The notes under the pieces: model-generated
The model's database searches: none
What the model was told of the DNA's origin: nothing
The model's input: the letters and a program-made list of their open reading frames with translations, nothing else
Shown here: positions 14,918 to 61,961 of the stretch, piece by piece
Numbering within the stretch: position 1 is the first letter of the stretch
How the letters are laid out: each line of letters opens with the position of its first letter
Source: Dehalococcoidia bacterium
GTDB taxonomy: Bacteria > Chloroflexota > Dehalococcoidia > Bin125
Reading direction: 5' to 3'
Assembly: GCA_965205165.1 (NCBI GenBank)
Contig: OZ242037.1
Span: 339,294 to 403,293, forward strand
DNA length: 64,000 nt
Made by a program: the position numbers and the translations under genes

Positions 14918-14976
14918 CGGGCAAGGGTAGCGCGGGCGGCGGGCTTGCAGGGGGGCTATTGATGCAGGGGGCGGGG

Positions 14977-26385: not shown

Positions 26386-26394
26386 GTTGGATTC

Positions 26395-27600: not shown

Positions 27601-27643
27601 GGGGGAGAGTTTAGAGGAGGATCGGCCCTAGACTGCGGGGTGC

Positions 27644-43717: not shown

Positions 43718-44695
43718 ATGACCACGGCGCTCGCATCCAACCTCCATGCCCGCCCGACCGGGCCCGACCTCTCGGTCGACGCGGCGCCGGGGGCGAAGCG
43801 GGACTTGGTGCTGCGCAATCCCGTGATGACCGCATCGGGGACGGGCGGGAACGGGCGCGAGCTGGCGCGGCTCTTCGACGTCTCGCGGCTGGGCGCGCTG
43901 GTCTCGAAGGGGCTGACCCTGCGGCCCAAGCGCGGGAACCCGCGACCGCGGATCGCGGAGACGCCGGCCGGGATGCTCAACACGATCGGGTTCCAGAACG
44001 TCGGCCTGCGCAAGCTGCTGCGCGATGTCGCGCCGGTCTGGGAGGCTTGGGACGTTCCCATCATCGTGAACATCATGGGCGACACGCCGGACGAGTTCGC
44101 GGTGCTGGCGGAAGCGCTGGACGGCGCGCCGGGCGTCGCCGCGCTGGAGGTCAACGTCTCCTGCCCGAACTTGGATTCGGGCGGGATCGAGTTCGGGCGC
44201 GACCCCGTGCAGGCGGCGCGGGTGACGGAGGCCGTGGCCACCGCGACGACCCTGCCCGTGATCGTGAAGCTGACGCCCGACGTGACGGACATCCGCGTCG
44301 TGGCGCGGGCGGTCGAGGCGGCCGGCGCGCACGCGGTCTGCGTGGCCAACTCGTTCGTGGGCATGTCGATCGATGTGCGGCGGCGCGCCCCGCGGACGGC
44401 GCGGCCGGTCGCGGGGCTGACCGGGCCGGCGATCAAGCCGCTGGCGCTGCGGCTGGTCTGGCAGGCGGCGCAGGCGGTGGAGATACCGGTGATCGGCTGC
44501 GGCGGAATTTCGACCGGGCGCGACGCCGTGGAGTTCCTGCTGGCCGGCGCGACGGCGGTGCAAGTGGGGACGGCCTCGTTCCGTGACCCGTTCGCGCCGG
44601 TCCGCGTCGTCGAGGAGATCGCGGATTATTGTCGGGAAGAAGGCGTCGCGCAGGTCGCGGACCTGATCGGCGCCCTGCGCATCGACGGGGTGTAG
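43718..44695 (+). CDS. pyrD: dihydroorotate dehydrogenase, class 1 catalytic subunit
   Basis: 325 aa with NPVMTASGT, GMLNTIGFQN, LEVNVSCPN, VKLTPD, NSF, GLTGPAIKP and GCGGIS, all typical of class 1 PyrD. Confidence 0.92.
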   Translation: MTTALASNLHARPTGPDLSVDAAPGAKRDLVLRNPVMTASGTGGNGRELARLFDVSRLGALVSKGLTLRPKRGNPRPRIAETPAGMLNTIGFQNVGLRKLLRDVAPVWEAWDVPIIVNIMGDTPDEFAVLAEALDGAPGVAALEVNVSCPNLDSGGIEFGRDPVQAARVTEAVATATTLPVIVKLTPDVTDIRVVARAVEAAGAHAVCVANSFVGMSIDVRRRAPRTARPVAGLTGPAIKPLALRLVWQAAQAVEIPVIGCGGISTGRDAVEFLLAGATAVQVGTASFRDPFAPVRVVEEIADYCREEGVAQVADLIGALRIDGV

Positions 44696-44762
44696 CTCAG
44701 TCTGGCAGAGCACGCGGTTTGGGGCCGCGAGGCCGGCGGTTCGAATCCGCCCACCCCGACCA
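44686..44762 (+). tRNA. tRNA-Pro(UGG): tRNA-Pro, anticodon UGG, CCA encoded
   Basis: Hand-folded cloverleaf:
- acceptor stem CGGGGTG/CACCCCG
- D arm GCTC-AGTCTGGCA-GAGC
- anticodon arm CGCGG-TTTGGGG-CCGCG (TGG at positions 34-36, G37)
- variable loop AGGCC
- T arm GGCGG-TTCGAAT-CCGCC
- discriminator A followed by CCA
The first 10 nt overlap the pyrD 3' end. Confidence 0.9.
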
Positions 44763-44835: not shown

Positions 44836-47800
44836 CTAGCGGGCGATGAAGAGGAGGTCTTGTGGGTGGAGGGGGAAGTTTTGGGAGCCTGGGATGGGGT
44901 TGCCTTGCGGGTCGGCGGCGTAGAGGATCCAGCGGCGGCCGTTCCAGAGGTGGAGGGCTTGGGCGCCGGGGAGTTCGTCGAAGAGGTCGGCGGCGGTGGC
45001 GGTGGTTGCATCGGCGGGGGCTGCCCAGACGGTGAGGCCGCTGGTGGTGGCGGGGTCGGCGGGGCGGCCGGCGCCGTCGGCTAGGTGGGCGGCGGGGGAG
45101 GTCGGGTCTGAGGGCGGGGTCGGTTGGCCGGGGAGGGGTGCGTTGCGGGCGTCGATCGGTTCGACGGCGGAGGCGGTGGTGCGGGAGCCGTCTTGGGCGT
45201 CGAAGGAGATGATGGCGATGGCTTGGGAGGCGGTGACGAAGGTGGCGGTGGCGGCGCCGTCCTTGGTGGCCAGGGTGGCGCTCTGCTCGGTGGTGGAGTC
45301 GCTGGGCGGGTTGGCGAGCTGGAGGGGGGAGGGGCCGTCGGCGGCGGTGGCGCGGACGCGGATGGTGGTGCCGTCGGCCACGGGGTTGCCGTCGGCGTCG
45401 GAGGCGCCGACGCGGATGTCGAGCGTGCGGCCGAGCAGGGGCGGGCCGGCGGGGACGGGGTCGAGCGCGGCGGCGGGGCCGGCGACGCCGAAGGGGGCGG
45501 TCAGCGGGCGCAGGCCGGGCGGGGCGACCTCGAGGCGGTAGCGGCCGGAGGCGAGCGGGGCGGTGGCGGCGGCGACGGCGGTGATGCGGTACTTGCACTT
45601 GCTGGCGCCGGTTTGGCAGAGGCGCTCGATCGTCAGGAAGTTCTGCGAGACCGGGCTGCCGGCGGCGTCGAGCACGCGGGCCGTGGCGGAGGGCAGGGCG
45701 GCGGCGTTGCCGGAGGAGTCGCGGGCTTCGATTTCGAGTTCGATCACGTCGCGGTCGTCGTCGGGGGTGGCGCGGTGGTGGAGCAGGGGCAGGCCGGCGC
45801 CGGCGCGCAGGGCGGAGGCGGCGCCGGCGAAGGTCAGGTCGAGCGCGTCGGTGTAGAGCGACTGCGCGCCGCCGGTGGCGGTGACGGCGAGCGAGATGCG
45901 GGCGGAGCCCTCGCCGGCCGGCGGGGTGAAGGTGATCGGCAGCGCGGCGGGCAGTGCCGGGTTCGCGGCCACTGCCGCGGCGAAGCCGGTGCCGGTGCCG
46001 GCGTTGATCGTGCAGCTGCGGGCCGAGCCGGGGCAGAGCGAGCCGGAGAGCGAGCCGCGGGTGGCGGTGAGGGTGATCGAGGCGATCGCGGCGGCATCGG
46101 CCGCGGCGCCGCCGGCGGCGGTGATGCGGACTTCGAGGTTTGCCGTGCCGCCGCGCGGGACGGGGCCGCTCGCGCCGGCGGCGCGGGCCAGCGCGACGGC
46201 GGCGACGGGCGCGGGCTCGCCCACGTCGATTTCGGCGGTGCGGAAGAGCGGGCCGCTGGCCAGGCGGAAGGCGGCGGCGGTGTCGGCGTAGCGGTCGGTC
46301 GGCTGCGTCGCGGCGCCGGTGAAGAGGTGGAAGCGGCGCTGGCGGGTCGGGATCAGGCTGGCCGTGATGCGGACATCCTCGGCGGCGGAGGCGTCGATGG
46401 CGATGCTGGGGCGGTTGCCTTCGGCGTCGGTGATCCAGCAGGCGATGTCGCGCTCGCCGGCCGTGGAGGAACCCTGCTCAGAGGCCAAGCCGCAGCGCAT
46501 GCGGCTCCAGGCGCCGCCCAGCATCAGGCGCTTCGAGCCGTCGCCCGCGCCCTCGACGCGCCAGGTCGCGGGGCCGGTGATGGCGAGGTAGGAATCGGCG
46601 ATCAGCCAGGCCGCGGCGGCCGACGGCGGGTCGCCGCCGGACAGGCGCGAGAGGCCGCCGGCGCAGGCGTCGAGCAGCTTGCCGTTTTCGTCCAGTTCGA
46701 GGAAGGAGGGGTCGGGGCGGGCGCAGCCCCAGCCGGAGCCGACCGCGTCGACGGCGACGGTGAAGCCGGCCGCGACCTCGGCCGTGGCGCCGGCGGCGAT
46801 CACCCCGTCCGCATCGGTCGGCGGGTAGGCCGAGCCGACCGGGGCCGAGACGGCGGGATGCGCGATGGCGAGCTGGCCGACCGCGGCGGCCTCCTCGCCG
46901 GCGAAGCGGGCGCGGACCGTGATCGTGGTCGGGCCGGAGACGCCGAGGGGCAGCGCGTACTCGGCGCGCAGGTTGCCGATCGGGTCGGAGGCGGTCGCGG
47001 AGCCGGCGCCGGCGAGCAGCTGGGCGCGGCTGAGCGAGAGCGTGCAGCCGCTCGATGAGGCGGCGCAGGCCTGGCCGTTGTAGGAGAGCGTGCCTTGGCT
47101 GATCGTCAGCTCGACCGCCTTGGCTTCGGCCAGTTCGGCGAACGTTGCGCTCTTGACCCGGCTGGGCAGGGCCGAGCGCGGGGCGGGGGCGGCGGTCGCG
47201 CGCGAGTCGGCGCGGCCGATCGCGAACAGCGCGGCCGGCGCGGCGGCGGCGTAGGCACTGCCGGGGTCGCTCCAGTCGAGGTAGACGCCAGCGGCGCGCT
47301 TGCCCGGGCCGGCGAGGTGGGCGAACGCCAGCGTCTGCTCGATCATCTCGGGCGGGCTCGCGCCGGCGATCTCGTAGCTCAGCGTCACCGTGCCGGTCGC
47401 GCCGGATGCGGCGGACGGGACGTAGGCCAGCTCGAGCGGGCGGATCGGCTCGTTCGCTTCGGATGCGCCTTGGAAGGCTTGCAGGGCGGCGCTGGTGATC
47501 GTGCAGGTGGAGGCGTCGCTCTGCACGGCCGGCTGGTAAACGGGGTGCTCCGCGGCGGTCCGCGGGCAGAGGGCTTGGTGGATGATCTCGCCCGCGCTCG
47601 CCGTGATCGTGAGCGTGGTGATCTCGTTGTACTGGACCAGCTCGTCGCCGTTCGCCGTCGGCGGATTGGCGGGGTGCGCCTCGAGGCCGCGCATCAGCGT
47701 CGCCGCGAACCCGATCGGAGTGCCCCGCTGCGCGGACGGGGCGGTGCAGGCGGTGAGCGCGGCGTCGCCGCTGCCGGACTCGGCGAGCGTGCAAACGCGC

Positions 47801-50800
47801 AGGCCGGCGGCGGCGTCCGCGTCGGCGATCAGCGGCAGGGCGAAGGCGCGCTTGGCCGGGGAGACCATGCGCAGCTCGTAGACCGCGGTGCGGGCGCCGC
47901 CGGCGGCCGACTCCAATGCGATCCGCTGGACCGGGCCGGTGCCCTCGGACTGCTCGTTGACGGGCTGGGCCGAGGTCGGCCCCATTCGGCCGGTATGCGC
48001 GAGCTCGATCCGGATTGTGGCGGCGGCCGAGTACTCGGCCGGCACCGAGGCGGCGAACTCGAGGCCGCCGGGCGTCCGCGCGCCGCGCTGGCGCGCTTGC
48101 CATTCGGCGCGGGTGATCTCGCAGGACGCGGCGACCGGGCAGAGGCCGCGCAGCGGGGTGCCGTTGCGGGCGGTCAGCTCGGCGCCCGCGATCAGGTCGC
48201 CGGCCGCGTCCTGCACCCGGATCGTGACCGTCTCGAAGTCCGCGAAGGACGGGCGCAGCGCGGCCGTCGGCGCGATGTATGCCTGCCGGCGCGCGTTGTA
48301 CAGCTCCAAGGCCAAGGGGGTCGGGCGGCCGCGCGGTTCGTACTCCCAAACCGTGGACGAGAGGCTGCCGGTGCGGGGCCTGCCGTCCGCGCCGACCGGG
48401 GCCAGCAGCGGGTAGGCCCAGGGCGCGTAGATGCTGAACTCGCGGACCTTGGTCATCGAGTCGGAGCGGTTCACCGTGAGCTTCAGGCGCACCGAGTTGG
48501 TCGAGCCTTGCGGGATCGAGACCGCGAACTTGAGCGGATCGACCTCATCGTTGTCGTCCGGGCTCGCCTCGGAGTCGTAGGCCTTCAGCGCGGCCAAGGT
48601 GATCGTGCAGACGTTCGACGGCTCGGCCTCCGTGCAGGGCGCGAACTTCGCGGCGGAGTCCGCGGCCGTGATCAGGCCGCCGGACGGGGCCGCCGTGCCG
48701 CTTGCGCCGTCGAGCAGTTCGATCTTCACGGCGGTCGCGCCCGAGGCCTGGTCGAACTCCCAGTACTGCGCCGTGTTCGTGCTCGTGACCGCCTCGTGCG
48801 CGGTCTTCGCGGCGTTGTAGACGTGCGCCCAGATTCGCGTGCGAGCCCCCGCCTGCGCCCACTGCTGGTCCGCCGCCGGCGCGGCGCCGGCCGCGTCCGC
48901 GACCATCGCGAACGGCTCGGCGCGGGTGCCGCCGTCGAAGGGCAGCGCGAAGGTCTTGGTGCGCTGGGCCAGGGTGCCGCTGCCGGTGCGGACGACGGTG
49001 ACCACCAGGTTGGCGTTGCCGAAGTTGGGCGTCATGTGGTTGGCGGGCACGCTGAAGTTGAACTCCAGCGGCAGCGCGCGGTAGTGGCTGCCGGCCCGCG
49101 GCGGGCCGGCCGCGAGGAAGTTCGCCGACGTGATCGTGCAGACGTTGCCGACCGCGGCCTCCGTGCAGGCCGAAGCTCCGTCGTTCTTCAGCACCTTGAC
49201 CTGGGCCCCGGTGATCGCTGAGCCGGAGCTGAGGCTGTTCGCCATGGGCCGGGTCTTGACCTCGATCTTGACCTCGCTGATCGTCGAGTAGGACACCCGG
49301 TTCGTGCTCGTCGTGTAGGTGTTGAGCGCGGTCGCGCTGTCGTAGACCAACAGCTGCACCGGCGTGTCCTGGCCGCCCGGCCGGTAGCGCCGGAAGCGGT
49401 GCGCCTGCGCGTCCTCGCTCATCAGCACGTTGCCGGTCTCGGCCGTCCCGTCGATGCCGATCGGCCGCGCGAACGGCTGCGCGTTCGAGGCCGCCGCGGC
49501 GCCGCGCTTGTAGACGGCGTCGTCGGTGCGGATGCCGTTGTTGTGGCGCGTGAGCTGGAGCAGGAGGGTCACGTCCTCGCTGCTGGTGAAGGCGGTCTTG
49601 ATCGCGAAGGCGAACTCGAACTCGAGGCTGCGGCGCGCGTCGGCCGCGCCCGTGATCCCCATCAGCGTCTTCAGCGTCGCGCGGCTCAGGGTGCAGGTGC
49701 CGCCCGCGTAGGAGTTCTCCGAGCAGCCCAGCGCCGTCCCGTCCGGCTTGGTGAACACGATCTGCGACGCGTTCAGCCCGGTCGAGGTCTGCGGCCCGGT
49801 CGGGTAGTTCGCGCTCAGGATCAGCGCCGAGCTCGAGTGCAGCGAGGCGAACGTGGCCAGCTCCGTCGCCGCCCGGGCATCCCAGCTGGCGGTGGAGGAG
49901 GACTCGTAGAGGCGCACCGCGACCCGCTGGCGCTCGGCCGCCAAGCCGTAGTAGTGCTCGTTGTCCGTGCGGTCGCCGTCATCGTCGTCGTCCTGCTCCG
50001 CCGTCCCGCCTGACAGCCGCGGGTCGAGGGCCAGCCCGGCGTGGTCCGAGCGCGTGCCCACCGGCGCCTCGTACTTCAGCGCGAAGGTGCGGTCGCGCTC
50101 GCCCGCGTTCTCCACCCGCACGTGCAGGTAGACCGCCGCGGCGCGCGTCAGCGGCACCGTGAAGTAGACCTCCAGCTCGTCCGCCGCGCCGGCGGTGGCG
50201 GGCCAGCTGGCGACCGGGATCGTGCAGACGTTGCCGGCGGTCGAGCCTTCGGTGCAGCCGGTCAGCGCGGTGCTGCCGGCCGCGTTCGAAGCGAGCACGG
50301 CGCCGGTCAGCGCCGTCCCGGCCGCGTCCGAGGCGAGCGTGAGCTTGACCGAGTCGAAGGCCGTGGTGGCCGCCCCGATGCCGGAGCTGGCCGAGGTGTG
50401 GATGCTGATCCGCGCCCGGTCCGCGCCGCCCGTCGCGCTGAACTCGCCCCCGGCCGGCAGCAGCACCCCGCTGACCAGGTGGCGCGGCGTCGCGCCCGGG
50501 TGCGCCGAGACGGAGAGCGGCTCGTCCCAGCGCAGCGAGACCGCGCGGTCTTCCTTGCCCGACTTGTTGGCCGAGAGGTGGATGTAGACCGCGCCGGCGT
50601 GCGCGTCCGGGATCGTGAAGTAGATCGAGTCGAGCGCGTTGGTGCCGGTGCAGCTGTTGGCGCACATGATCGCGGTGCCGCTGCTGTTGGTGAAGGTCGC
50701 GTTGCTCAGCAGCGTGTTGCCGGCCGCATCGGAGGTGATCTTGATCGCGTAGCCGTCGAAGGCGGCGCCGACAGCGTTCGCGTGCGAGCCGTCGTACGAG

Positions 50801-53225
50801 GTGCGGGCCTGGTTGCGCAGGAAGACCGCGGCGTAGTTCAGGCCGGCCTCGGGCTGCCAGCGGCGCGTGTTCGCTGACAGCGTGCCGCTCTCGAAGGTCG
50901 ACGAGGTCGGCTGCGGGACGAGCAGCGGCCAGGCGGCGACGTATGGGGGCTGGTAGGGGATCGCGAAGGTCTGCGCGTGGCCGGCCGCGTTGCCCACGGT
51001 CACGTGCAGGTAGGCGCTGGTCAGGCGCGAATCGGGCACCGTGAACCAGATGTCCAGCGCGTCCGCGGTGCCGCCCGTGGCGGGCCAGTTGTTGATCACG
51101 CAGGTCGCGCCGGAGGCGGCGCACTGCGGGAGGCGCGCGCCCGATGAGTTGACGATCGCCGCGCCGCTCACCTCGGTGCCGCCGTCGGAGCCGGTCGCGA
51201 TCCGGATCGTGACCCGGTTGAAGTCCGCGCTCGAGGCGTTGGCCGCGCCCGATGTGTAGGTGTTCGAGTGCCAGGCGTCGCGCAGGTAGACCGTCGCCTT
51301 GTTGCGCGCCGCCTGGGAGGCGAAGTTTTCGGTGCGCGAGGTGAGCGTGCCGCCCTCGTGCGCGTCGGTGGTCGGGTGGCGCGGGACGGCGATGGGGTAG
51401 ACCGGCAGCGGCGGGCCGTATTGGAGCGCGGTGGCGCGGACCGACTTGCCGTTGGTCGCGGGGGTGGCGCTGACCACCACGTAGGCGGGGGTCGAGACGG
51501 TGTTGGGCACCGAGAAGTAGAAGCTCAGCCCGCCGGTCGCGGGCCAGTTGGCGACCGCGATCGTGCAGGCGTTGCCCACGGAGGCGCAGCCGGTCACGGC
51601 GGTGGTGCCGCCCGCGTCGGAGGAGATCTCGGCGCCGGCGAGGGCGGTGCCCTGGGCATCGGAGGAGATCGTGATCGTGACGTTGGTCACGACCGAGCTC
51701 GCCGCGTTCGCGTCGGCGGCGTTGTACTCGTCATCGTGCCAGGCATCGCGCAGGTAGACGGTGACCTCTTGCGCGACGCCGCCGGGCGAGAAGTTGCGGC
51801 TGCCGGCGGCGAGGTTCGTGCCGTCGGCGGTGCCGGAGGGGACGACCAGCGCGTAGGCGACCACGGGGCTGTCGTAGCGGACGGAGAAGACCTGATCTTC
51901 CTTGCCGCTCTCCTGCACCGTCGCGACCAGCCAGACCGCGCCGTGCTGGCTGGGCACGGTGAAATGGACGTTCTGCACCAGCGTGCGCAGCGGCGAGCCC
52001 GTGGCCGCCTGCGGCCAGCTGGCGCTGGGGATCGTGCAGACGGGGCCCTGCGAGGTCTCGCTGCAGTCGGAGAGCACGCTGCTGCCGCCGGTCGAGCCGG
52101 TGAAGACCGGCCCGCTGGCCGAGGTCGAGCCGTCCTCCGCGGTAGCCAGGCGCAGGATCACGCGGTCGAAGGCAGAGCGCTCGACCAAGGTCGCGCCCGA
52201 CGAGTACGTGTTCGAGTGGCGGGCGAAGCGCAGGTAGACCTCGGCCGAGTTCACCGCGCCGGCCGCGGCCCAGTCGCGGGTCGCGGTCTTCACGTCGCCG
52301 GTCTCGCGGGTGCCGCCCGGGGCGGGCACGACCAGCGGCCAGACGCGCAGGTAAGGGTCGTACTTGAGCGAGAACTCGCGGTCGCGCTCGCCCGCGTTCT
52401 CTACCCGCACGTGCAGGTAGACCGCGCCGTCCTGCGTCGCCGGCAGGCGGAAGTAGAGGTCCAGATCGTCCGCGTTGCCGCCCGTCGCCGGCCAGCTCGA
52501 AGCGGGGATCGTGCAGGTGTTGCCCGCCGTCGCGCCCTCCGTGCAGCCGGTCAGCGCGGTCGGGCTGCTCGCCGCTCCGTCCGAACTGAGCACCGCGTTG
52601 GCCAGCGCCGTGCTGCCGTCCGCGTTCGAGGCGACCGTGATGATCACGCGGTCGAAGTCGGCGATGGCTGCGCCCGCGCTGGAGCCGGACGCGGCGCGGA
52701 CGCTGATCCGCGCCCGGTCCGCGTTGCCGTCGCGGTCGTACTCGCCGGCCGACGCGATCACCGTCCCGCCCGAATCCTGCGGCCGCGCCAGCGGATGCGC
52801 CGAGACCGTCGCCGGCGCGTCCCACTTCAGCGAAACCGCGCGGTCCAGCTTGTCCGCCTTGTTCACGGAGAGATGCACGTAGACCGCGCCGGTGTGCGCG
52901 TCGGGGATCGTGAAGTAGCGCGTGTCGAGCGCGTTGGTGCCGGTGCAGCTGTTGGCGCAGGTCTCCGCGGTGCCGGAGGAGTTGGTGAAGGTGGCGTTGC
53001 TCAGCAGCGTGTTGCCGGCCGCGTCGGAGGTGATCTTGATCGCGTAGCCGTCGAAGGCCGCGCCGAGCGCATTCGCGTGCGCGCCGTCGTACGTGGTCCG
53101 CAGCTGATCGCGCAGGAAGACCGCGATCTGGTTCAGCCCGCCCTCCGGCAGCCAGCGCCGCGTGTTGGACGAGATCGTGCCGCTCTCGAAGGTGCTGGAC
53201 GTCGGCTGCGGCACGATCAGCGGCA
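44836..53225 (-). CDS. giant repetitive secreted/cell-surface protein, C-terminal ~2,796 codons (continuation of ORF 53217..60434 after a 1-nt frame shift)
   Basis: The sense-looking part of track ORF 44836..55251 begins at ...PLIVPQPTSSTFESG. That continues the module series of the upstream ORF. It contains ~150-aa modules with a C-x(4-8)-C-(T/V)-I...(N/S)WP motif. Next come degenerate modules and an acidic linker (EQDDDDDGD). Two invasin/Big_1-like segments follow (IEARDSSGNAA..., VGASDADGNPVADGTTIRVRA...TKDGAATATFVTAS), then an unassigned ~65-aa C-terminus. Confidence 0.85.
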
Positions 53226-56200
53226 GGCGCGGATGTAGGGCGACTGGTACTTCACCGCGTAGGTCTGCACCTCGTTCTGCGCGTTGCGCACCGTCACGTG
53301 CACGTAGGCGTCTTCCTGGTACGCCGCGGGCAGGCTGAACCACATGTCCAGCGCGTCCGCCTTGCCGGCCGTCGACGGCCAGCTGCTGATCACGCAGGTC
53401 GCGCCCGTTGCCGCGCATTGCGTCAGGCGGCCGCCCGATGCGTTGCTGATCAGCGCACCGCTGACCGCGGTCATCCCGTCCGAGCCGGTCGCGATCCGGA
53501 TCGTGACGCTGTTGAACTCGCTGGAATCCGCGTTGGTCGCGCCCGATGCGTACATGTGCGAGTGCCACGACTCGCGCAGGAACACCGTCGCCTTCTGGCG
53601 CGCGGCGCTCGCCGCGTAGGCGCCCGTGCGGGCGGAGAGGTCGCCCGTCTCCAGCACGTCGCTGGAGTTGCGCGGCACGACCAGCGGGAAGACCGGCAGC
53701 GGCGGGTCGTACTTCAGCGCGAAGATCCGGTTCAGCTTGCCCGTCGCCGACGGATCCGCCTCCACCACCACGTAGACCGGGCCCGAGGTCGTGCCCGGCA
53801 CCGAGAAGTACAGGTCCAGCCCGCCCGTCGCCGGCCAGTTCGCCGACGTCACCGTGCAGGTGTGGCTGGCCGAGGTCTCCGTGCAGGCGCTCACCGCCGT
53901 CGGCGTCGCGTCCCCGTCCGAGGAGATCACCGCGTTCGGGACCGGGGTCGCGCCCGCAGCGTCGCTGGTGATCTTGATCGTGACGTCGGTGATGTCCGCG
54001 GCCGCGGCGTCGGTGGCGTCGGCGTCGTAGACGCCGCCGTGCGGGCCGTCGCGCAGCCGCACGTTGACCTGCTGCGAGCCGCCCACCGCCGCGAAGGCGC
54101 GCACCGCCGCGCCCAAGTTGGTCCCGTCCGACGTGCCCGACGGCACCACCAGCGGGTAGACCGAATAGGGCGCGTCGTACTTGACCGACCAGACCCGATC
54201 CTCGTTGCCCGACTTCTTGACCGTCACCACCAGCCAGATCGGCCCCTGGTCCTGGCCCGGCACCGCGAAGTAGACGTCCAGATCCTCGGTCAGGGGCGGA
54301 GTGTCGCTGTTCTGCGGCCACGCCGAGGACGGGATCGTGCAGACCGGGCCTTGCGTCGATTCGCTGCAGATCTCCAGCATCTGCCCCGCGTCGCCCGAAC
54401 GGGCGAAGACCGGGCCGCTGGCCGAGGTCGCCCCGTCCTCCTCCGTCGCCAGCCGCAGCGTGACCGAATCGAAGTCCGAGCGGGCGACGTTGGTATGCGC
54501 GGCGGTGTAGGTGTCGGAGTGCGCCGCATCGCGCAACTCGACCTCCGCGTGGTTGACCATCCCCGCCGAAAGCCAGTTCCGGCTCTGGTCCTTGAGGTTG
54601 CCCGTCTCGCGGATGAGGCCGTCGAACGGCACCGCCAGCGGCCAGACCCGCAGGAACGAGTCGTACTTCAGCGTCGCCGTGTGGTCGCGCTTGCCCGCCG
54701 TCGCGATGATGTAGACGTGGATGTAGGCGTCGCCGGTGTGGCTGTCCGGCACCGTCACGTAGAAGTCGAGGTCGTCGGCCCGCCCGTCGGTGTCCGGCCA
54801 GACGCCCGCGCCGATCACGCAGACGTTGCCCACCGCCCTCGAAGCGCAGTTCGGGATCACCCCCGTGCCCGCCGGGTTCGAGGAGAGCCTCGCACCCGCA
54901 ATCGCCGTGCCCGACGTGTCCGATGCAACCGTGAGCGTGACCAGCAGGAACTCGGAGGTGAGCGCCTTCAAGTTCGAGCTCGGGCCCGATCGGAGCCTGA
55001 ACCGGACGCGGTCGGCCGCGCCATCGCTGTACTCGCCGCCCGTCCGGACCCCGGCGATGCTGCCGTCGGCATTGAGCGCCAGGAAGGACGGGTAGGACGC
55101 GCTGTGCGGCGGCGGGTCGTACTTCAGCGTGTAGGTCGTGCCCGTCTTGCCCGACTTGGCCGCGCTGTAGTGGACGTAGGCCGCCGCCGTGTGCGCATCC
55201 GGAATCTTGAAGTAGGCCGTCGCGTCGGCCGACGGCGTGTTGTTGGTGCACTCATTGAGGCAGGCGAGCGCCTGGCCCGTGGAGTCCGTGAAGGCCGCGC
55301 CCGCCAGCAGCGTCTGGCCCGCCGCGTCCGAGGTGATCCGCAGCGTCGTGCTGTCGAAATCCGCCACCGCCGCGTTGGCGTGCGCCGCGACGTACTGACT
55401 TCGCGGCCGGTCGCGCAGGAAGATGCGCGCCGTGTTCATGCCGGTCAAGTTGCCCTGCGTCGTCGAGATGGCGGCCAGCGCGAACCAGTACCGGCTCTGG
55501 TCGGCCAGCACGCCGGTCTCCAGGCCCGTCGCCGGCTGCGGCACGATCAGCGGATACGCCTCCACGTACGGCGTCGGGTACTTCAGCGCGAACCGCTGCC
55601 GGTCACCGTCCGCGTTGCGCACCGTCACCACCAGGTAGGCGTCCGTCCGGTGCGAAGTCGGCACCGCGACGTAGAGCCCGAACTCGCCCGATGTCCCGCC
55701 CGACTGCGGCCAGTTGGCCGAAGTCACCACGCAGGTGTGCCCCGCCGCCGCGCACTGCGTCAGCCGCGCCCCGCTCGAATTGCTGATCGCCGCCCCCGCA
55801 ATCCCCGTCCCCCCGTCCGCGCTGGTCGCCAGCCGGATCGTGACCTGGCTGAAATTCGCCACCGGCTCGTTGGCCGCGCCCGACGTGTAGGTGTTGGAGT
55901 GCCAGGCGTCGCGCAGGAAGACCGAAACCTGCCGCCGGCTCCCGTCCGTGGGATAGCTGCCCGTGCGCAGGCTCAGGTCGCCCGACTCGTAGGTCGTCGA
56001 CGTCGGCCGCGGCACCGCCAGCGGGTAGATCGGCAGCGGCGGCAGGTACTCCAGCGAGACCACCCGCTGGCTCTTCCCGGTCGCCGTCACCGTGACCACC
56101 ACGTAGACGTTGCCCGTCGTCGCGTTGGGCACCGAGAAATAGAAGTCCCGCCCGCCGCTGGCCGGCCAGTTCGCCGACGTGATCGTGCAGTCGCCACCCG

Positions 56201-56980
56201 TGCCCGTGCAGCCCGTCAGCGCCGTGTTCCCGGCCGCGTCCGAGGAGATCTTCGACCCCGTGATCTCGTTCGCCCCCGCCGCGTCGCTGGCGATGATGAT
56301 CTTCACGTTGGTCACCGCCGAACGCGCCACGTCGACGTCGCCCGAGTCGTACGTGTCATCGTGCCAGTCCTGCCGCAGGTGCACCGTCGCCTGCTGCGTC
56401 CTGCCCGCGCTGAGGTAGTTGCGCGCGCCCGCCGCCAGGTCCGTCCCCTCCGCGGTGCCCGCCGGCACCACCAGCGGATAGGCCGCGTAGTGCGGGTCGT
56501 AGCGGATCGAGCGCACCCGGTCGCCCTCGCCCGACTTCTTCACCCGCACCACCAGCCAGACCGGGCCCGAATGCCGGTCCGGCACCGTGAAGTAGACGTC
56601 CTGCAGCAGCGTCCGCAGCGGCGTCCCGCTGTCCTGCGGCCAGTTCGCGCTCGTGATGTTGCAGACCGGCCCCTGCGCGGTCTCCGTGCACGCGCCCAGC
56701 ACGCTGCTGCCCCCGCTCGAACCCGTGAAGACCGGCCCGCTCGCCGATACCTTCCCGTCCTCCTCCGTCGCCAGCCGCAGCTCCACGCTGTCGAAGTCGC
56801 CGCGCTGCACGTTCACCCCGCCGGAGGCGTAGGTGTTGCTGGTCTCCGCGTTGCGCAGGTACACCTCGACCTCGTTGACCGCCCCGCCCGCCTGCCAGTT
56901 GCGCGCGTTGGTCTTGACGTTGCCCGTCTCCCGCGTCCCGCCCGGATCCGGCACCGGCAGCGGCCAGATGCGCAGGTACG
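50060..56980 (-). repeat. three tandem copies of a ~2.3-kb, five-module coding super-repeat inside the giant gene (coordinates approximate)
   Basis: The landmark peptide (Y/F)LR(I/V)WPL.VP recurs at 56949..56978, 54627..54656 and 52323..52352. The landmark PL(I/L)VPQP(T/A) recurs at about 55540, 53200 and 50920. Module order A-B-C-D-E is the same in each copy. Some stretches are about 90 percent identical at DNA level by eye (e.g. 53010..53090 vs 50710..50790). Confidence 0.8.
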
Positions 56981-59900
56981 ACTTGTACCTCAGCGCAAAG
57001 TTGCGGCCCAGAATCTGGCGCCCGGCGGCTTGCCTGAAGGCGTTGACGTACAAGTAGACGTCGCCGGTGGTGGCGGCCGGCACGCTGAACCAGATGTCGA
57101 GCTCTTCGGTCCGCGCCGGGCTGGCGCCGTCCTGCGGCCAGTTGGCCGCGAGGATGTTGCAGAGGTTGCCGGGCGTGGCGCCTTGGGTGCAGCCGGAGAC
57201 GGCCGTGTTGCCGCTGGCCGCCCCGTAGATCACCCCGCCGCTGAGACCGGGGTAGGTGACGGCGCCGAAGCTCTCGCTCCTGGTCGACACCGATATATTG
57301 ATCCGGGTGAACTCGCTCCGCTGCGCGTTGATGTCGGCCTCATCCCATTCATTCCCGTGCCAGAGATCGCGCAGGGCGATCCGCACCCGCTGCCGCTCCG
57401 CCCCCGAGCGGTAGGCGCGGATGTTCGTGCTGATGTCCCCGCTCTCCGGCACGCCGCCGGGCGCGGGCGCGACCAGCGGATGCACGTCGATGTAGCGCGG
57501 CTCGTATTCGAACGAGAACGTGCGCGAGGCCTTGCCCGACTGCATCGCCGTGGCCACCAGGTAGTACGACCCCGTCACGGTGATCGGCACCGTCACGCTC
57601 AGGTTCACCTCCGTCGTCGTGCCGCTGCTCTCCGGCCAGTTCGCCGACGTGATCGTGCAGGTCGGCCCCGCCGACGCCTCGCTGCAGATCGAGGTCCCGC
57701 CCACGGTCGTGGCGCCGGTCAACTCCAGGCCCGCGAACTCGTGGTCGCCGGACGGGTCCGTCGACAGCCGGATCCTGACCGAGTCGAACGCGCTGCTGGC
57801 CGCGTTGGCCGCGGTCGGAACGTAGATGTTGTTGTGCGCGGCCGCGCGCAGGAAGAGCTTGGTCCTGGTGGCTAAGCCGTCGCCGTTCCATTGCAGGCTG
57901 ATCGCGGAAATGTCCTGATTGTTGTATCCGCTGTAGATCCCGCCGTCGTTGCGCGTGGCCGGCACCAGCAGCGGCACCGCCCCGATCTGCGCGTCGCTGT
58001 ACGACAGCGCGAAGCGCCGCATCGCCTCGCCCGACTTGCGCGCCGTCAGCACCACGTAGGTGTCCCCCGAATGGCCCGACGGCACCGAGAAATACAAGTC
58101 CAGCGCCGTCGTCGTCCCGCTCGAAGCCGGCCAGTCCGCCGCCGTGATCGTGCACGTGTTCGGCGTCCCCGTGCAGCCCGCGATCGCCGTGTTCCCCCCC
58201 GCATCCGACGACAGCTCCGCCCCCGTGATCAGCGACGCCCCGGCCGTGTCCGAGGCCACCGCGATCGTGACCGAATCGAACTGCGCCGACGCCGTGTTCG
58301 CCGCGCTCGCCGTATAGGCGCCCCCGTGCGCCGCCGCCCGCAAATTGACCTGCACCTGCTGCGTCCCGCCCGACCCCGCGAACGTCCGCGAACGCGCCGT
58401 CACCAGCGTCCCGTCCGACGTCCCCGACGGCATCGCCAGCGGATGCGCGTCCACCGTGTCCGCGTACGCCAGCGCGAACGTGCTGCTGCGCCTGCTCGGC
58501 TGCGAGGTCGTCACGTGCAGGTAGGCCGGCCCGCTGTGCGAGGCCGGCACCGAAAACCACAAATCCAGCCGATCCGCCGTCGTCGTGCCCGGCCAGTTCG
58601 CCCGCGTGATCGCGCAGCCCGCGCTCGGCTCGACCCCGCAGCCCGTCAGCGGCGTGGTCCCCGCCGAATCCGACGAAATCTTCGCCCCAGAAATCGTGTC
58701 CGCCCCCGCCGCGTCGCTCGTGATCCTGATCACCGCCCGTTGGATGTCCGTCTTGGCCGCGTTCGCGTGCGTCGAGACGTAGGCGTCCCCGTGCCCCCCC
58801 GCGCGGATGAACACCGCCGCCTGCTGCGCCGCACCGCCCTCCGCGTAGGCAACCAGCCCCCGCACCGTCCCCGCCGCCACCGTCCCCCCAGGCGCCCGCG
58901 CCGCCAGCGGGTAGCCCGCCGCCAGCGGCGCCTCGTACTTCAGCGCGTACGTCCGCGGCTGGTACCCGTCCTTCTCCGCCTTCACCGTCAGATAAGCCGG
59001 CCCCCTGTGCGAATCCGGCACGCTGATGTACAGCGCCAGATTAATGGTTTCTTGGCTGTTGCCTGCCACCGGCCAAGAGTCGCTGTTCACCGTGCAGGTA
59101 TGGCCCACGCTGCAGGCCGTGAGCGGCGGAGACGTCTGGGCCGCGTCGCTCGAGAGCTTCGCCCCCGCTATCGGGTTCTCCCCGGCCGCGTCGCTGCTGA
59201 TCCTGACCCGCACCCGGCTGAGGTCGCTGCGCTCCGCCCGCCCGGCGAAGAAGTTGTAGATGGTCCTCGCCTCATCGTAGAGCAGGGCATCGCCCCGCAG
59301 CACGCCCGCGTTCGGCTTCCAGCGGAACGTCATGCTGGAAGGATCGCCGGAAACGAAGGCATTGCTGTCGTCCCGCGGCACGAAGAACGGATGCGCCGGC
59401 ACGTCGGGCGACCAGTGCAGCTCGGAACCGCGCCCGCGCCGGGGCGGGTTCCCCGTCTTGACGGTGCTCACGGAGACGTAGACCGGCCCGCTGTAGTTGA
59501 AGGTACCGCCAAACGCTTCGATCCAAACATTGAGCTTGCCCGTGACGGGGTCCGCACCCGACCCGGCCGGCCAACTGGAGCTGGGTATGCTGCAGGTGTC
59601 GCCCGCCTGGCTCTCGGAGCAAACGCTCAGCCTCCCTCCGTTCGCATCCGTGATCCGCGCGCCGCCGATCTCCTCGCTGTCCTCGTTCAGTATCTGGATC
59701 GTCGCCCGGTCGAACACGCTCCGCCTCACGTTGGCGTGCGAGAGGTTGAAGCGGCCGTCGTGCGCGACGTTGCGCAGCCAGATGGCCACGCGCTGCCGCG
59801 CCCCGGTCCACGGGGCCAGCGGCTCCGCCGTGCTGCTCACGGTAATGACGCCCGCATCACTCTCCGGCAGCATCAGTGCCCAGAGAGCGATGGCCCCCGC

Positions 59901-60434
59901 CTCGCCGAAACTGAAGGAGAACCGATCCCAGACGACGGTGTCCTCGCCCGCTTCATTGTAGCGCACTTCCATGTAGAGATAAACGGATCCGCTATGGTTG
60001 CCCGGGATGCTGAATGAGAGCTCGGCGTTGTCCATTCGATTGCGATTTGTGGGCCAATCGCCGTCGAGCGCCTTGGTGCGGATGTTGTGCGTGCCGCTGG
60101 TGCGGCGGCCCGAGAAGCTGCTCGGCAGCGTGATGTGCGCGCCGCTGATCAGCGATCCGCCGCCGCCGGTCGCGGTCCGCAGCGAGATGCGCCAGTCCCC
60201 CCCGTAAGAAGCCCCTTCGTCGGTCGTCAGCGCGGTGCCGGGCGTACAGGCGGTGTCGTGCCATCTTGCAAAGCGCACGGTGATCGTCTTCGCTTCCGTT
60301 TTCGAGTATCCGCCGGCGGCGAGCTCGGTAGAGCCCCGCGTGTCGCAGATGCCGGCGCCCCCGATCGAGGCGGACCAGCGGCCCGTATAGGTCAAATCCG
60401 ACTGCGCCTCAACCAGCCCCGGCGCAAGCGCCAA
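53217..60434 (-). CDS. giant repetitive secreted/cell-surface protein, N-terminal/central 2,405 codons
   Basis: 2405-aa ORF (TTG start as called in the track). It holds about 16 consecutive ~150-aa modules ending in ...AY(L/V)xV....R.FALKY..P. It ends at a TGA that interrupts a module exactly where paralogous modules read A-W/Y-P-L-(I/L)-V-P-Q-P. Confidence 0.85.
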   Translation of the reverse strand: MALAPGLVEAQSDLTYTGRWSASIGGAGICDTRGSTELAAGGYSKTEAKTITVRFARWHDTACTPGTALTTDEGASYGGDWRISLRTATGGGGSLISGAHITLPSSFSGRRTSGTHNIRTKALDGDWPTNRNRMDNAELSFSIPGNHSGSVYLYMEVRYNEAGEDTVVWDRFSFSFGEAGAIALWALMLPESDAGVITVSSTAEPLAPWTGARQRVAIWLRNVAHDGRFNLSHANVRRSVFDRATIQILNEDSEEIGGARITDANGGRLSVCSESQAGDTCSIPSSSWPAGSGADPVTGKLNVWIEAFGGTFNYSGPVYVSVSTVKTGNPPRRGRGSELHWSPDVPAHPFFVPRDDSNAFVSGDPSSMTFRWKPNAGVLRGDALLYDEARTIYNFFAGRAERSDLSRVRVRISSDAAGENPIAGAKLSSDAAQTSPPLTACSVGHTCTVNSDSWPVAGNSQETINLALYISVPDSHRGPAYLTVKAEKDGYQPRTYALKYEAPLAAGYPLAARAPGGTVAAGTVRGLVAYAEGGAAQQAAVFIRAGGHGDAYVSTHANAAKTDIQRAVIRITSDAAGADTISGAKISSDSAGTTPLTGCGVEPSAGCAITRANWPGTTTADRLDLWFSVPASHSGPAYLHVTTSQPSRRSSTFALAYADTVDAHPLAMPSGTSDGTLVTARSRTFAGSGGTQQVQVNLRAAAHGGAYTASAANTASAQFDSVTIAVASDTAGASLITGAELSSDAGGNTAIAGCTGTPNTCTITAADWPASSGTTTALDLYFSVPSGHSGDTYVVLTARKSGEAMRRFALSYSDAQIGAVPLLVPATRNDGGIYSGYNNQDISAISLQWNGDGLATRTKLFLRAAAHNNIYVPTAANAASSAFDSVRIRLSTDPSGDHEFAGLELTGATTVGGTSICSEASAGPTCTITSANWPESSGTTTEVNLSVTVPITVTGSYYLVATAMQSGKASRTFSFEYEPRYIDVHPLVAPAPGGVPESGDISTNIRAYRSGAERQRVRIALRDLWHGNEWDEADINAQRSEFTRINISVSTRSESFGAVTYPGLSGGVIYGAASGNTAVSGCTQGATPGNLCNILAANWPQDGASPARTEELDIWFSVPAATTGDVYLYVNAFRQAAGRQILGRNFALRYKSYLRIWPLPVPDPGGTRETGNVKTNARNWQAGGAVNEVEVYLRNAETSNTYASGGVNVQRGDFDSVELRLATEEDGKVSASGPVFTGSSGGSSVLGACTETAQGPVCNITSANWPQDSGTPLRTLLQDVYFTVPDRHSGPVWLVVRVKKSGEGDRVRSIRYDPHYAAYPLVVPAGTAEGTDLAAGARNYLSAGRTQQATVHLRQDWHDDTYDSGDVDVARSAVTNVKIIIASDAAGANEITGSKISSDAAGNTALTGCTGTGGDCTITSANWPASGGRDFYFSVPNATTGNVYVVVTVTATGKSQRVVSLEYLPPLPIYPLAVPRPTSTTYESGDLSLRTGSYPTDGSRRQVSVFLRDAWHSNTYTSGAANEPVANFSQVTIRLATSADGGTGIAGAAISNSSGARLTQCAAAGHTCVVTSANWPQSGGTSGEFGLYVAVPTSHRTDAYLVVTVRNADGDRQRFALKYPTPYVEAYPLIVPQPATGLETGVLADQSRYWFALAAISTTQGNLTGMNTARIFLRDRPRSQYVAAHANAAVADFDSTTLRITSDAAGQTLLAGAAFTDSTGQALACLNECTNNTPSADATAYFKIPDAHTAAAYVHYSAAKSGKTGTTYTLKYDPPPHSASYPSFLALNADGSIAGVRTGGEYSDGAADRVRFRLRSGPSSNLKALTSEFLLVTLTVASDTSGTAIAGARLSSNPAGTGVIPNCASRAVGNVCVIGAGVWPDTDGRADDLDFYVTVPDSHTGDAYIHVYIIATAGKRDHTATLKYDSFLRVWPLAVPFDGLIRETGNLKDQSRNWLSAGMVNHAEVELRDAAHSDTYTAAHTNVARSDFDSVTLRLATEEDGATSASGPVFARSGDAGQMLEICSESTQGPVCTIPSSAWPQNSDTPPLTEDLDVYFAVPGQDQGPIWLVVTVKKSGNEDRVWSVKYDAPYSVYPLVVPSGTSDGTNLGAAVRAFAAVGGSQQVNVRLRDGPHGGVYDADATDAAAADITDVTIKITSDAAGATPVPNAVISSDGDATPTAVSACTETSASHTCTVTSANWPATGGLDLYFSVPGTTSGPVYVVVEADPSATGKLNRIFALKYDPPLPVFPLVVPRNSSDVLETGDLSARTGAYAASAARQKATVFLRESWHSHMYASGATNADSSEFNSVTIRIATGSDGMTAVSGALISNASGGRLTQCAATGATCVISSWPSTAGKADALDMWFSLPAAYQEDAYVHVTVRNAQNEVQTYAVKYQSPYIRACR

Positions 60435-60499
60435 CCACCCCCCGCCAGCAGCACCGCCGCCAAGCCCCCCAGCAGCCCCCGCCCCCAGACCCGCCTCAT
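60392..60499 (-). CDS. signal-peptide-like short ORF; probable true 5' end of the giant gene, displaced by a 1-nt frame shift
   Basis: ATG at 60499 lies 7 nt downstream of GGAGG. It encodes MRRVWGRGLLGGLAAVLLAGGGW..., with a basic n-region and a hydrophobic h-region. The giant ORF frame continues ...WLALAPGLVEA/QS, an AxA-type cleavage context. The two frames meet in a G6 run (60438..60443). Confidence 0.6.
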   Translation of the reverse strand: MRRVWGRGLLGGLAAVLLAGGGWRLRRGWLRRSRI

Positions 60500-60531
60500 C
60501 TCACCCCCTCCCCTCACCACAGCAAACACTA

Positions 60532-60556
60532 CCCCCCCCCCCCCCGTCTCTCTCTC
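60532..60556 (-). repeat. homopolymer C14 (G14 on the coding strand) immediately followed by (TC)5 ((GA)5 on the coding strand)
   Basis: Read directly: a, then 14 C (60532..60545), g, then tctctctctc (60547..60556). It lies 33-58 nt upstream of the ATG at 60499 of the giant gene. Confidence 0.95.
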
Positions 60557-60596
60557 CCACCCAACCCAAAGCACGAAACCAGCCGCCCCAGCCCCT

Positions 60597-61307
60597 TCAT
60601 CCGAGCACCCCCGTCGCCATCAGGCCGATCAAAACGCCGAACAGCCCGATCATCAACGTAGCCAGCCTCAACTCCGACCGCGCAACCGCCCCCTTCAACT
60701 CCGCCCGCAACGCCTTCTCCAACCCATCGATCTTCGTCTTGAGCCCCTCGATCTCCCCCTTGAGCCCGACAATCTCGCCTTTGAGCTCCCCCTTGACCCC
60801 ATCAATCCGCCCCCCAAGATCGCCCTTGACACCATCAATCTGCCCGCCAAGCTCGCCCTTGAGTCCCTCGACCTCGCCCTTGACACCATCAATCCGCCCC
60901 CCAAGATCGCCCTTGACACCATCAATCCGCCCGCCAAGCTCGCCCTTGAGTCCCTCGACCTCGCCCCTGACCTCCGTAAGCTCGCCCTTGACCTCCGTTT
61001 CGAGCCCGTTGATCCGATCCCAGAGCTGGGTGAAGCGGCGCTCGAACATCGTCGTCAGGTCGCTCGCCGTCCCGCGGATCGTCGACATCAGCGAGTTGAA
61101 CTGCCCTTCGGTCTTCCCCACATGCCCGTTCAGCCGCTCGGCCAGCACCTGATCCGAAGTCTTGACCTGCTCCCCCGTCCTCGCGATCGCCTCCGCCACC
61201 GCGTCGTCCCGCGCCTCCCCGACCAGCGCCAGCACCGCGTCCGCCAAGCCCTCGTCGCACCCCTGCGCGAGAAGCCGCTTCCGATACTCGCCCGTCTCCA
61301 CAGCCAT
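60597..61307 (-). CDS. tail-anchored coiled-coil protein with 11-residue repeats (DUF1640/CCDC90-like by resemblance), paralog 1
   Basis: 236 aa: MAVETGEYRKRLLAQGCDEGLADAVLAL..., then repeats GRIDGVKGDLG/GEVEGLKGELG, then a C-terminal TM helix LATLMIGLFGVLIGLMATGVLG. Confidence 0.75.
   Translation of the reverse strand: MAVETGEYRKRLLAQGCDEGLADAVLALVGEARDDAVAEAIARTGEQVKTSDQVLAERLNGHVGKTEGQFNSLMSTIRGTASDLTTMFERRFTQLWDRINGLETEVKGELTEVRGEVEGLKGELGGRIDGVKGDLGGRIDGVKGEVEGLKGELGGQIDGVKGDLGGRIDGVKGELKGEIVGLKGEIEGLKTKIDGLEKALRAELKGAVARSELRLATLMIGLFGVLIGLMATGVLG
60792..60965 (-). repeat. 87-bp tandem duplication (33+33+21 nt sub-units) inside coiled-coil paralog 1
   Basis: 60792..60878 and 60879..60965 differ at 2 positions by eye. 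The sub-unit is cttgac(a/c)ccatcaatc(c/t)gccc... It encodes GELGG(R/Q)IDGVKGDLGGRIDGVKGE(V/L). Confidence 0.85.
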
Positions 61308-61328: not shown

Positions 61329-61961
61329 CTACCCGAACACGCCAGCCGCCGCCAGCCCCGTCAGAACGCCGGCCACCCCGATGATCAGCATCCCCAGCCC
61401 GAATGCCGCCCGATGGATCGCCGCCAGTATCTGCGCCTGCCTCGCCTCATTCTCCGCCTTCTGAGCCTTGAGCTCCCCCCGCAACTCCGCGAGCTCCCCC
61501 CGCAACTCCGCGAGCTCGTCCTTGACCGCATCAATCCGCCCGCCGAGCTCGTCCTTGACCGCATCAATCCGCCCATTGAGCTCGTCTTTGACACCTTCAA
61601 TCCGCCCGCCAAGCTCGTCCTTGACCTCCGCGATCTCGCCTTTGACGTCCACTTCAAGCTTGCTGATCCGCTCCGAGAGCTGGGTGAAGCGGCGCTCGAA
61701 CATCGTCGTCAGGTCGCTCGCCGTCCCGCGGATCGTCGACATCAGCGAGTTGAACTGCCCCTCGGTCTTCCCCACATGCCCGTTCAGCCGCTCGCCCAGC
61801 ACCTGATCCGAAGTCTTGACCTGCTCCCCCGTCCTCGCGATCGCCTCCGCCACCGCGTCGTCCCGCGCCTCCCCGACCAGCGCCAGCACCGCGTCCGCCA
61901 AACCCTCGTCGCACCCCTGCGCGAGAAGCCGTTTCCGATACTCGCCCGTCTCCACAGCCAT
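61329..61961 (-). CDS. tail-anchored coiled-coil protein, paralog 2
   Basis: ATG at 61961 chosen by homology to paralog 1 (an ATG at 61970 is also possible). The N-terminal ~96 aa are nearly identical to paralog 1. Different repeats follow (GRIEGVKDELN, ELAELRGELAELRGEL), then a C-terminal TM helix FGLGMLIIGVAGVLTGLAAAGVFG. The track ORF 61329..63134 over-extends. Confidence 0.75.
   Translation of the reverse strand: MAVETGEYRKRLLAQGCDEGLADAVLALVGEARDDAVAEAIARTGEQVKTSDQVLGERLNGHVGKTEGQFNSLMSTIRGTASDLTTMFERRFTQLSERISKLEVDVKGEIAEVKDELGGRIEGVKDELNGRIDAVKDELGGRIDAVKDELAELRGELAELRGELKAQKAENEARQAQILAAIHRAAFGLGMLIIGVAGVLTGLAAAGVFG

Follow-up and report, generated by a model that had tools for sequence, protein, structure and literature searches.

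Two very long minus-strand open reading frames (ORFs) occupy the distal part of a 64,000-nucleotide stretch of a Dehalococcoidia bacterium genome (contig OZ242037.1; hereafter the window), and the question they raise is whether they belong to one gene and, if so, what kind of protein that gene makes. We find that they are parts of a single giant gene for a secreted, repetitive protein of 5,221 residues, built from ~150-residue domains that each contain a cysteine pair. The gene is preceded by a conserved poly-G tract and a coiled-coil partner gene, and it ends in a conserved C-terminal domain, three features that were absent from an earlier note on this DNA, whose reading is partly supported by the present analysis. 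From these features and from the relatives of the protein we infer, on balance, a fibre on the cell surface that is phase-variable, evolves fast and belongs with the fibrillar adhesins in type.

Long spurious ORFs are common in the window because its G+C content is 70%. Codon-position G+C marks two minus-strand intervals as coding, 53217–60500 (third-position G+C, GC3, of 0.93) and 44836–55251 (GC3 0.88), and the translations of the two large ORFs form a single unbroken series of similar ~150-residue units. The earlier note had joined the ORFs at 53217–60434 and 44836–55251 with a short ORF beginning at ATG 60499, and all three do fall in one frame once two positions have each been supplied with one extra base. 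The gene then runs on the minus strand from the ATG at 60499 to a stop at 44836–44838, and the corrected sequence of 15,666 nt encodes 5,221 amino acids with zero internal stops.

The first restoration lies within the signal peptide (60438–60443), where a G6 run must be G7, as it is in the orthologous contig L001 (related loci carry L numbers throughout). Here 'CTG GCG GGG GGT GGT TGG' must read 'CTG GCG GGG GGN TGG TTG', giving ...LLAGGWLALAPGLVEAQS. At the second site (53223–53225, base at 53224), where a module starts with W-P-L-I-V-P, the Trp codon TGG is cut to TG; the window reads 'GCC TG- CCG CTG ATC GTG CCG', where L001 reads 'GCT TGG CCG CTG ATC GTG CCG'. Two frame-breaking 1-nt deletions in 15.7 kb could mean that this copy is a pseudogene with genuine frameshifts that is no longer made, in which case interest would attach to the family only, and the remaining ~45 kb of coding DNA in the window shows no obvious frameshift on inspection, which favours such a view. 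The lesions themselves argue otherwise: there are just two, both are 1-base contractions of G runs of the kind typical of long-read homopolymer error, and 5,221 codons contain no in-frame stop or other decay, with GC3 between 0.88 and 0.93 along the whole gene. Nor do the relatives decay as pseudogenes, an outcome that the earlier note had raised against its own reading; they carry intact ORFs of 4,390–4,963 aa. Inactivation of this copy is thus doubtful in our estimation. The frameshifts do not reflect long-term decay; they are errors of long-read assembly or else mark a copy that has recently gone OFF, and assembly error is the likelier of the two because only single G-run bases are lost, the relatives are intact, and related metagenomic long-read contigs at 1–5x coverage contain many similar frame breaks. 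Errors of this type split or lose giant genes of this sort in annotation. Programmed frameshifting was rejected, since site 2 has no slippery sequence and the relatives are in frame. Site 1 does include a formal -1 slippery heptamer (G GGG GGU) at which a slip would give exactly the correct signal peptide, a match that we judge to be coincidence.

The protein opens with a Sec-type signal peptide (MRRVWGRGLLGGLAAVLLAGGWLALAPGLVEA/QS; 60405–60499, on the minus strand as are all parts of the gene), assigned by inspection and by comparison with homologues. It follows a Sec-like n/h/c plan by inspection, its h-region 'L(L/A)GGW(L/F/I)ALAPAP' is kept across the family, and in a hydropathy scan it holds the only strongly hydrophobic 19-mer of the whole protein. 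The signal is followed by an N-terminal variant domain (aa 33–206; 59883–60404), which has partial module similarity and a Cys pair 32 residues apart, and then by 21 canonical ~150-residue Cys-pair modules with an immunoglobulin (Ig)-like fold (aa 207–3483; 50053–59882). A hidden Markov model built from 15 modules detects these 21 at E = 1e-22 to 4e-66. It also picks up the incomplete copy at the N-terminus and some six degenerate ones, the last of them at ~aa 4360. A secreted, highly repetitive product had been predicted and is borne out by the signal peptide and the 21 strong modules, and the recurrent motifs described at the same time are visible in the module alignments. Modules five apart (i and i+5) are 40–81% identical, compared with ~30–38% for other pairs, and the proposed five-module unit is therefore confirmed as three super-repeats in the identity matrix (50053–56966, comprising 54645–56966, 52342–54644 and 50053–52341).

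Beyond the canonical array, an acidic linker (EQDDDDDGD) and degenerate modules with one Cys pair each occupy aa 3484–4400 (47302–50052), and a C-terminal region with more Cys-pair domains (aa 4401–5110; 45172–47301) is 91–92% identical to its relatives. A Pro/Thr/Ala-rich linker, read off the sequence (aa 5111–5154; 45040–45171), connects this region to a terminal 67-residue domain (44839–45039). The 66 cysteines of the protein fall into 33 consecutive pairs, one per ~150-residue segment with two in the ~200-residue segment at aa 4561–4760; most have the spacing C-x3–9-C, and the pairing continues to the last domain at the C-terminus. The protein as a whole is acidic (474 Asp and Glu versus 374 Lys and Arg) and rich in Thr, Ser and Ala. 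Motif and hydropathy scans of the giant protein agree with the earlier observation that no LPXTG motif or terminal transmembrane helix is present, and they also find no RTX (GGxGxD) or PEP-CTERM motif. The terminal domain (..LWNGRRW..Y...PGSxNF..) is the hallmark of the whole family, and its consensus LWNG(R/K)(R/E)W..Y...PGSxxF is common to the large members and to those of 1,400–1,900 aa. AlphaFold2 models it with a mean predicted local distance difference test score (pLDDT) of 91. It has no match in Pfam, its best Foldseek match in the PDB is at E = 0.8, and a PDB sequence-profile search returns chance matches only (aspartate decarboxylase, E = 0.14). This novel domain is a candidate anchor only.

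The Cys-pair module was described at first sight as matching no known repeat family, and the searches bear this out. Nothing in Pfam or NCBIfam scores above threshold against the N-terminal third, a two-module unit or the C-terminal third of the protein, and the Pfam families without an above-threshold match include Big_1–13, Cadherin, VCBS, FG-GAP, DUF11 and CARDB. At E ≤ 1, a Pfam hmmscan reports just two matches, to Ig_VWA7 (16 bits against a cut-off of 27) and to CarboxypepD_reg (11 bits). Two segments in the C-terminal third had been likened to Big_1 domains; that resemblance is not reproduced, and the segments have no Pfam match even at E ≤ 1. A PDB sequence-profile search with the module gives nothing below E = 0.16 (disintegrin, a chance match), and no known repeat family is matched with high confidence. 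Five relatives (P0009, P0011, P0019, P0026 and P0028) likewise have no match above gathering score, and the most distant relative, P0018 (profile E = 2.1e-9), has a K319L-like PKD domain.

The AlphaFold2 model of the module at aa 1341–1491, computed from a 32-module alignment, is an eight-stranded beta-sandwich of high confidence (pLDDT 95.9; predicted template modelling (TM) score 0.90). Cys91, which is invariant, and its partner Cys98 occupy opposite arms of a tight hairpin (strand 91–92, turn 93–96, strand 97–101), the geometry expected for a disulfide that would staple the hairpin. Foldseek finds no match to the module at E ≤ 1e-3 in the PDB or among the viral models of BFVD. The best superpositions are with the reeler domain of F-spondin (3coo/2zou), a DUF4466 protein (4ei0) and Ig-like domains of pilins and adhesins, at TM scores of 0.48–0.54 and 8–10% identity; for reeler and DUF4466 the ~150–165 aligned columns, Foldseek E-values of 1.7e-3 or worse and root mean square deviations of 4–8 Å indicate likeness of fold class only. 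The module is not placed in the reeler family either, for which the best E is 1.7e-3, the TM score 0.50–0.54 and the identity 8–9%, with no Pfam match. Since it matches no described family, yet adopts an Ig-like sandwich with generic structural neighbours, the module is an undescribed sequence family of a common Ig-like fold class and not a new fold. The earlier word 'undescribed' thus stands for the sequence family and does not extend to the fold.

The family is rare. Searched exhaustively with the profile, 1.84 billion representative proteins yield 16 at E ≤ 1e-3, and two scans of JGI metagenomes, with the coiled-coil N-terminus of the partner and with the terminal domain, find no relatives. 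A word-index protein search with the five-module unit returned three fragments only and missed the intact homologues, probably through an effect of composition. Two intact homologues lie on megabase-scale contigs: P0004 (4,963 aa, 24 modules), which matches the window protein at ~91% identity along the C-terminal 841 aa, and P0005 (4,390 aa, 19 modules). Three homologues exceed 3,800 aa and have 17–24 modules, and smaller family members of 1,400–1,900 aa have 3–7 modules. In GTDB, searched with a C-terminal alignment at one genome per species, the single carrier is the Dehalococcoidia metagenome-assembled genome (MAG) CBDESM01, which has five loci (L005–L009). These are 88–96% identical at the nucleotide level, and in one pair the similarity runs ~7 kb past the gene; the MAG is 2.6 Mb in size, and the five copies make up ~2% of it. 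Tandem arrangements also occur. Locus L001 contains the 3' end of one giant gene, then a coiled-coil gene, then a second giant gene, and in L010 (contig coverage 247x) a 4,955-aa member is directly followed by the 1,430-aa P0019. Such multi-copy loci and tandem pairs are a substrate for gene conversion.

Selection along the protein is uneven. The ratio of nonsynonymous to synonymous substitution rates (dN/dS), computed against the orthologous contigs L001 and L002, is 0.21–0.44 for aa 3817–5221, 0.83 for aa 3048–3725, 0.60 for aa 1306–2539 and 0.93 for aa 141–1305, and dS is alike across the compared regions (0.12–0.29). The C-terminal part is therefore under the strongest purifying selection, and dN/dS climbs toward the N-terminal modules. 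These values bear on a different account of the protein, in which it is a structural component of the envelope (an S-layer, sheath or matrix scaffold) and not an adhesin, and the G tract is an ordinary leader or promoter element. On that account the fibre would construct or space out the cell covering in a lineage with a poorly known envelope. An acidic, Thr/Ser/Ala-rich protein with a secretion signal and no recognisable binding domain would suit that role, and the conserved C-terminal module might serve for self-assembly or for attachment. However, neither an SLH domain nor any other known S-layer family is matched in Pfam or NCBIfam; five divergent copies per genome and near-neutral dN/dS in the distal modules are, by our reasoning, unexpected for a lattice-forming protein; and a linear array of 30 domains suggests a fibre over a lattice. 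We consider the structural role distinctly improbable. The earlier description of the protein as adhesin-like or S-layer-like is best kept, tentatively, in its first half, which fits the architecture; the second half has no support.

On the gene strand, a G14 tract at 60532–60545 precedes the ATG by 33 nt. No other homopolymer in the window is as long, or even reaches 9 nt. G16–G21 tracts occupy the equivalent place in eight related loci (L001:6028, L002:1763, L003:564, L004:9980, L010:6079, L014:7948, L015:7927 and L016:9810). With the window included, the tract is present in 9/9 core loci whose 5' end is in hand, at lengths of 14–21 G, always on the coding strand and 1–60 nt 5' of the family gene start, and the 16 related loci contain no homopolymer of ≥10 nt other than these tracts. 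The tract abuts a promoter-like region (60546–60577, minus strand) composed of a block TTCGTGCTTTGG (60566–60577), a spacer and a GA-rich, GAnnAT-like box (60546–60556). In the alignment, the block TTCG(T/C)GCTT(T/C)GG is conserved upstream of the tracts, and the GAnnAT-like box ends 1–3 nt before the Gs. The distant member L011 keeps the upstream block, but has G5 only. Consensus scans around both gene ends find no sigma-70 promoter match and no intrinsic terminator.

The relation of the tract to the start codon differs from locus to locus. In the window and in L001 the tract is followed by a Shine–Dalgarno (SD)-like sequence and an ATG. In L002, L004 and L010 the start codon lies 1–11 nt after the tract with no other SD between. 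L004 and L002 also have an ATG or GTG ahead of the tract, in frame at the length that the tract shows there. L016 has no start codon after the tract; its only candidate, ATG-TGC-ACT-GAG-ATC, precedes the tract (ATG-N12 ahead of it) and is one base out of frame at G17.

A tract of this kind could regulate without mutating, through reiterative transcription that gives 5' poly-G leaders sensitive to nucleotide pools, through a DNA or RNA G-quadruplex, or as the SD itself. The GAnnAT-like box ends so close to the Gs (1–3 nt) that the transcription start would fall inside the tract, and homopolymeric start sites are established as places where initiation can be reiterative (PMC8812562, PMC7039003). 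The lack of any other SD in L002, L004 and L010 fits the SD version. On the other hand, the promoter was assigned by eye and the sigma-70 scan has no match to it, and L016 needs its tract to be translated. From what is generally known of contingency loci in other bacteria, replication would be expected to leave a tract of such length unstable. Regulation by an unchanging tract is unlikely, in our view.

Immediately upstream of the giant gene, a gene at 60597–61307 (minus strand) encodes a 236-residue coiled-coil repeat protein with a C-terminal transmembrane anchor and the N-terminal motif EYRxxLLAQGC(D/E)EGLADAV. A tandem paralogue (61329–61961, minus strand) encodes 210 residues that are 66% identical to it. 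A homologue of this partner lies immediately upstream of the giant gene in the window (two copies), L001/L014, L002, L004 and L015. The partner family is very rare, with six relatives among 5.8 billion proteins, and its Pfam matches are all below gathering scores. Like CCDC90-like/DUF1640 and XhlA-type proteins, the partner consists of a coiled coil followed by one C-terminal transmembrane helix; unlike them, it has the N-terminal EYR..LLAQGC(D/E)EGLADAV motif, which is specific to its small family.

These elements suggest the following picture of the protein at work. After Sec export and cleavage of the signal peptide, it would form a string of ~30 Ig-like beta-sandwich domains, each stapled by a single short-range disulfide that bridges a beta-hairpin. 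Attachment to the cell envelope would fall to the conserved C-terminal third of the fibre with its 67-residue terminal domain, and the N-terminal modules would project outward, exposed and changing fast in sequence. Expression would probably be switched or tuned by slippage of a hypermutable G14–G21 tract, as in a contingency locus. Some copies would be controlled at the promoter or leader, and others through the reading frame, with the tract translated as poly-Gly. More tentatively, a free-living, uncultured lineage of Dehalococcoidia may possess a true contingency system made of paralogous 13–15-kb fibre genes, some with a partner, in which poly-G slippage is combined with diversifying distal modules; such surface variation would resemble that of pathogens, but would perhaps be driven by phage or predator pressure and not by immunity.

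Several observations weigh against the fibre reading. As sequenced in the window, the giant gene is in three pieces. Searches of Pfam and NCBIfam and motif scans find no recognised adhesive or anchor domain, which leaves it to guesswork both which end is anchored and whether the protein acts as an adhesin. The dN/dS values are inflated by a GC3 near 0.9 and possibly also by gene conversion between modules, and the gradient could therefore record relaxed constraint instead of diversifying selection. The tract is absent in three distant family members, and its placement relative to the start codon varies among loci, so no single tract mechanism fits all of them. Differences in tract length do not prove hypermutability because they come from low-coverage long-read contigs; one and the same locus reads G19 at 1x (L001) but G17 at 2.6x (L014). 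The partner accompanies 5/8 of the distinct loci with a 5' end in hand; none lies upstream of P0019 in L010, and tblastn finds none in L003 or L016.

If the poly-G tract is a slippage switch, the surface of an environmental, non-pathogenic bacterium would vary through contingency loci, which is unusual, and the bacterium would come from a phylum whose cell envelope is poorly understood, and tract length in long-read metagenomes would offer a simple read-out of phase variation in uncultured organisms. A keyword search of the literature on homopolymer phase variation in Chloroflexi returned no paper with these terms in its title or abstract. The analysis also defines three sequence families that are absent from Pfam and NCBIfam, namely the Cys-pair Ig-like module, the 67-residue C-terminal domain and the tail-anchored coiled-coil partner. 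Two of the three are modelled at high AlphaFold2 confidence, and all are restricted to a narrow, uncultured lineage of Chloroflexota.

The giant gene has chromosomal housekeeping and coenzyme A (CoA)-transferase genes as its neighbours. On the plus strand, a tRNA-Pro(TGG) gene (44686–44762) shares ~10 nt with the 3' end of pyrD. It is convergent with the giant gene, at a distance of 74 nt from the stop codon of the latter; an Rfam scan reports tRNA only. The nearest matches of the window PyrD are metagenomic proteins at 74–93% identity, and those from Dehalococcoidia or Chloroflexi MAGs are at ~64–73%. Tepidiforma is not supported as the source of the DNA, since these MAGs account for every PyrD match with an organism name and Tepidiforma is not among them. 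The earlier note had pointed to the neighbouring tRNA gene, which indeed adjoins. A role for it as an island integration site was rejected, as no repeat of the tRNA 3' end is found beyond the far side of the giant gene, and the adjacency appears incidental. Paralogous family III (CaiB-type) CoA-transferase genes lie at 25096–30171 and 61988–64000, and also near giant genes in L004, L011 and L014; this is probably a trait of the lineage rather than a functional link. Strand asymmetry is extreme: at 5–30 kb of the window the plus-strand GC3 skew lies between +0.5 and +0.76 whichever way the genes point, drops toward the giant gene, changes sign inside it (~53000–57500) and reaches -0.4 at 60.6–62 kb, a flip that looks like a switch of the replication-terminus type. 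Elsewhere in the window, three minus-strand genes encode SocA/Panacea-domain (antitoxin-like) proteins (13371–13940, 14348–15217 and 15354–15902). They adjoin a stretch of lower G+C (63%) and zero skew at ~18–20 kb with a DUF4357-like ORF, which may be a foreign or defence-related insert.

A giant repetitive surface protein is an expected kind of object, although the domain family that makes it up here is undescribed. Interest is added by the conservation of the poly-G tract, by the coiled-coil partner that often accompanies it and by the multi-copy, fast-evolving character of the family in an uncultured Dehalococcoidia lineage. Among known systems, its closest counterparts are the fibrillar adhesins and other giant surface proteins with Ig-like stalks, such as the Bap/SasG-type proteins, SiiE and LapA/MpIBP. 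The fibrillar-adhesin class, as reportedly defined by Monzon and Bateman, shares with the giant protein an export signal (assigned here by inspection), a stalk that is a long tandem array of beta-sandwich domains, a length of several thousand residues and a repeat number that differs among relatives. In contrast to that class, the giant protein has a stalk domain that belongs to no described family and a short-range Cys pair in every domain, and it has no recognised adhesive head, LPXTG motif, RTX/type I secretion system (T1SS) retention element, SLH or cell-wall-binding domain, transmembrane segment or other known anchor. Its host also differs, being a free-living, uncultured bacterium of the class Dehalococcoidia, for which a literature search found no described giant adhesin. 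Comparison with the RTX/T1SS giant adhesins in particular shows no GGxGxD repeats and, in their place, a Sec-type signal.

The second comparison is with contingency loci, among them the poly-G/C genes of Neisseria, Haemophilus and Campylobacter and the Mycoplasma vlp genes, in which a promoter poly-A tract accompanies repetitive surface proteins. The differences are that switching by tract length is putative here, that the placement of the tract varies by locus and that the host is not a host-associated pathogen. At 14–21 nt, the tracts are longer than most contingency-locus examples. The likeness is in the long homopolymer placed in the promoter, leader or 5' coding region and conserved across orthologues and paralogues, and in its association with a multi-copy family of repetitive, fast-evolving proteins.

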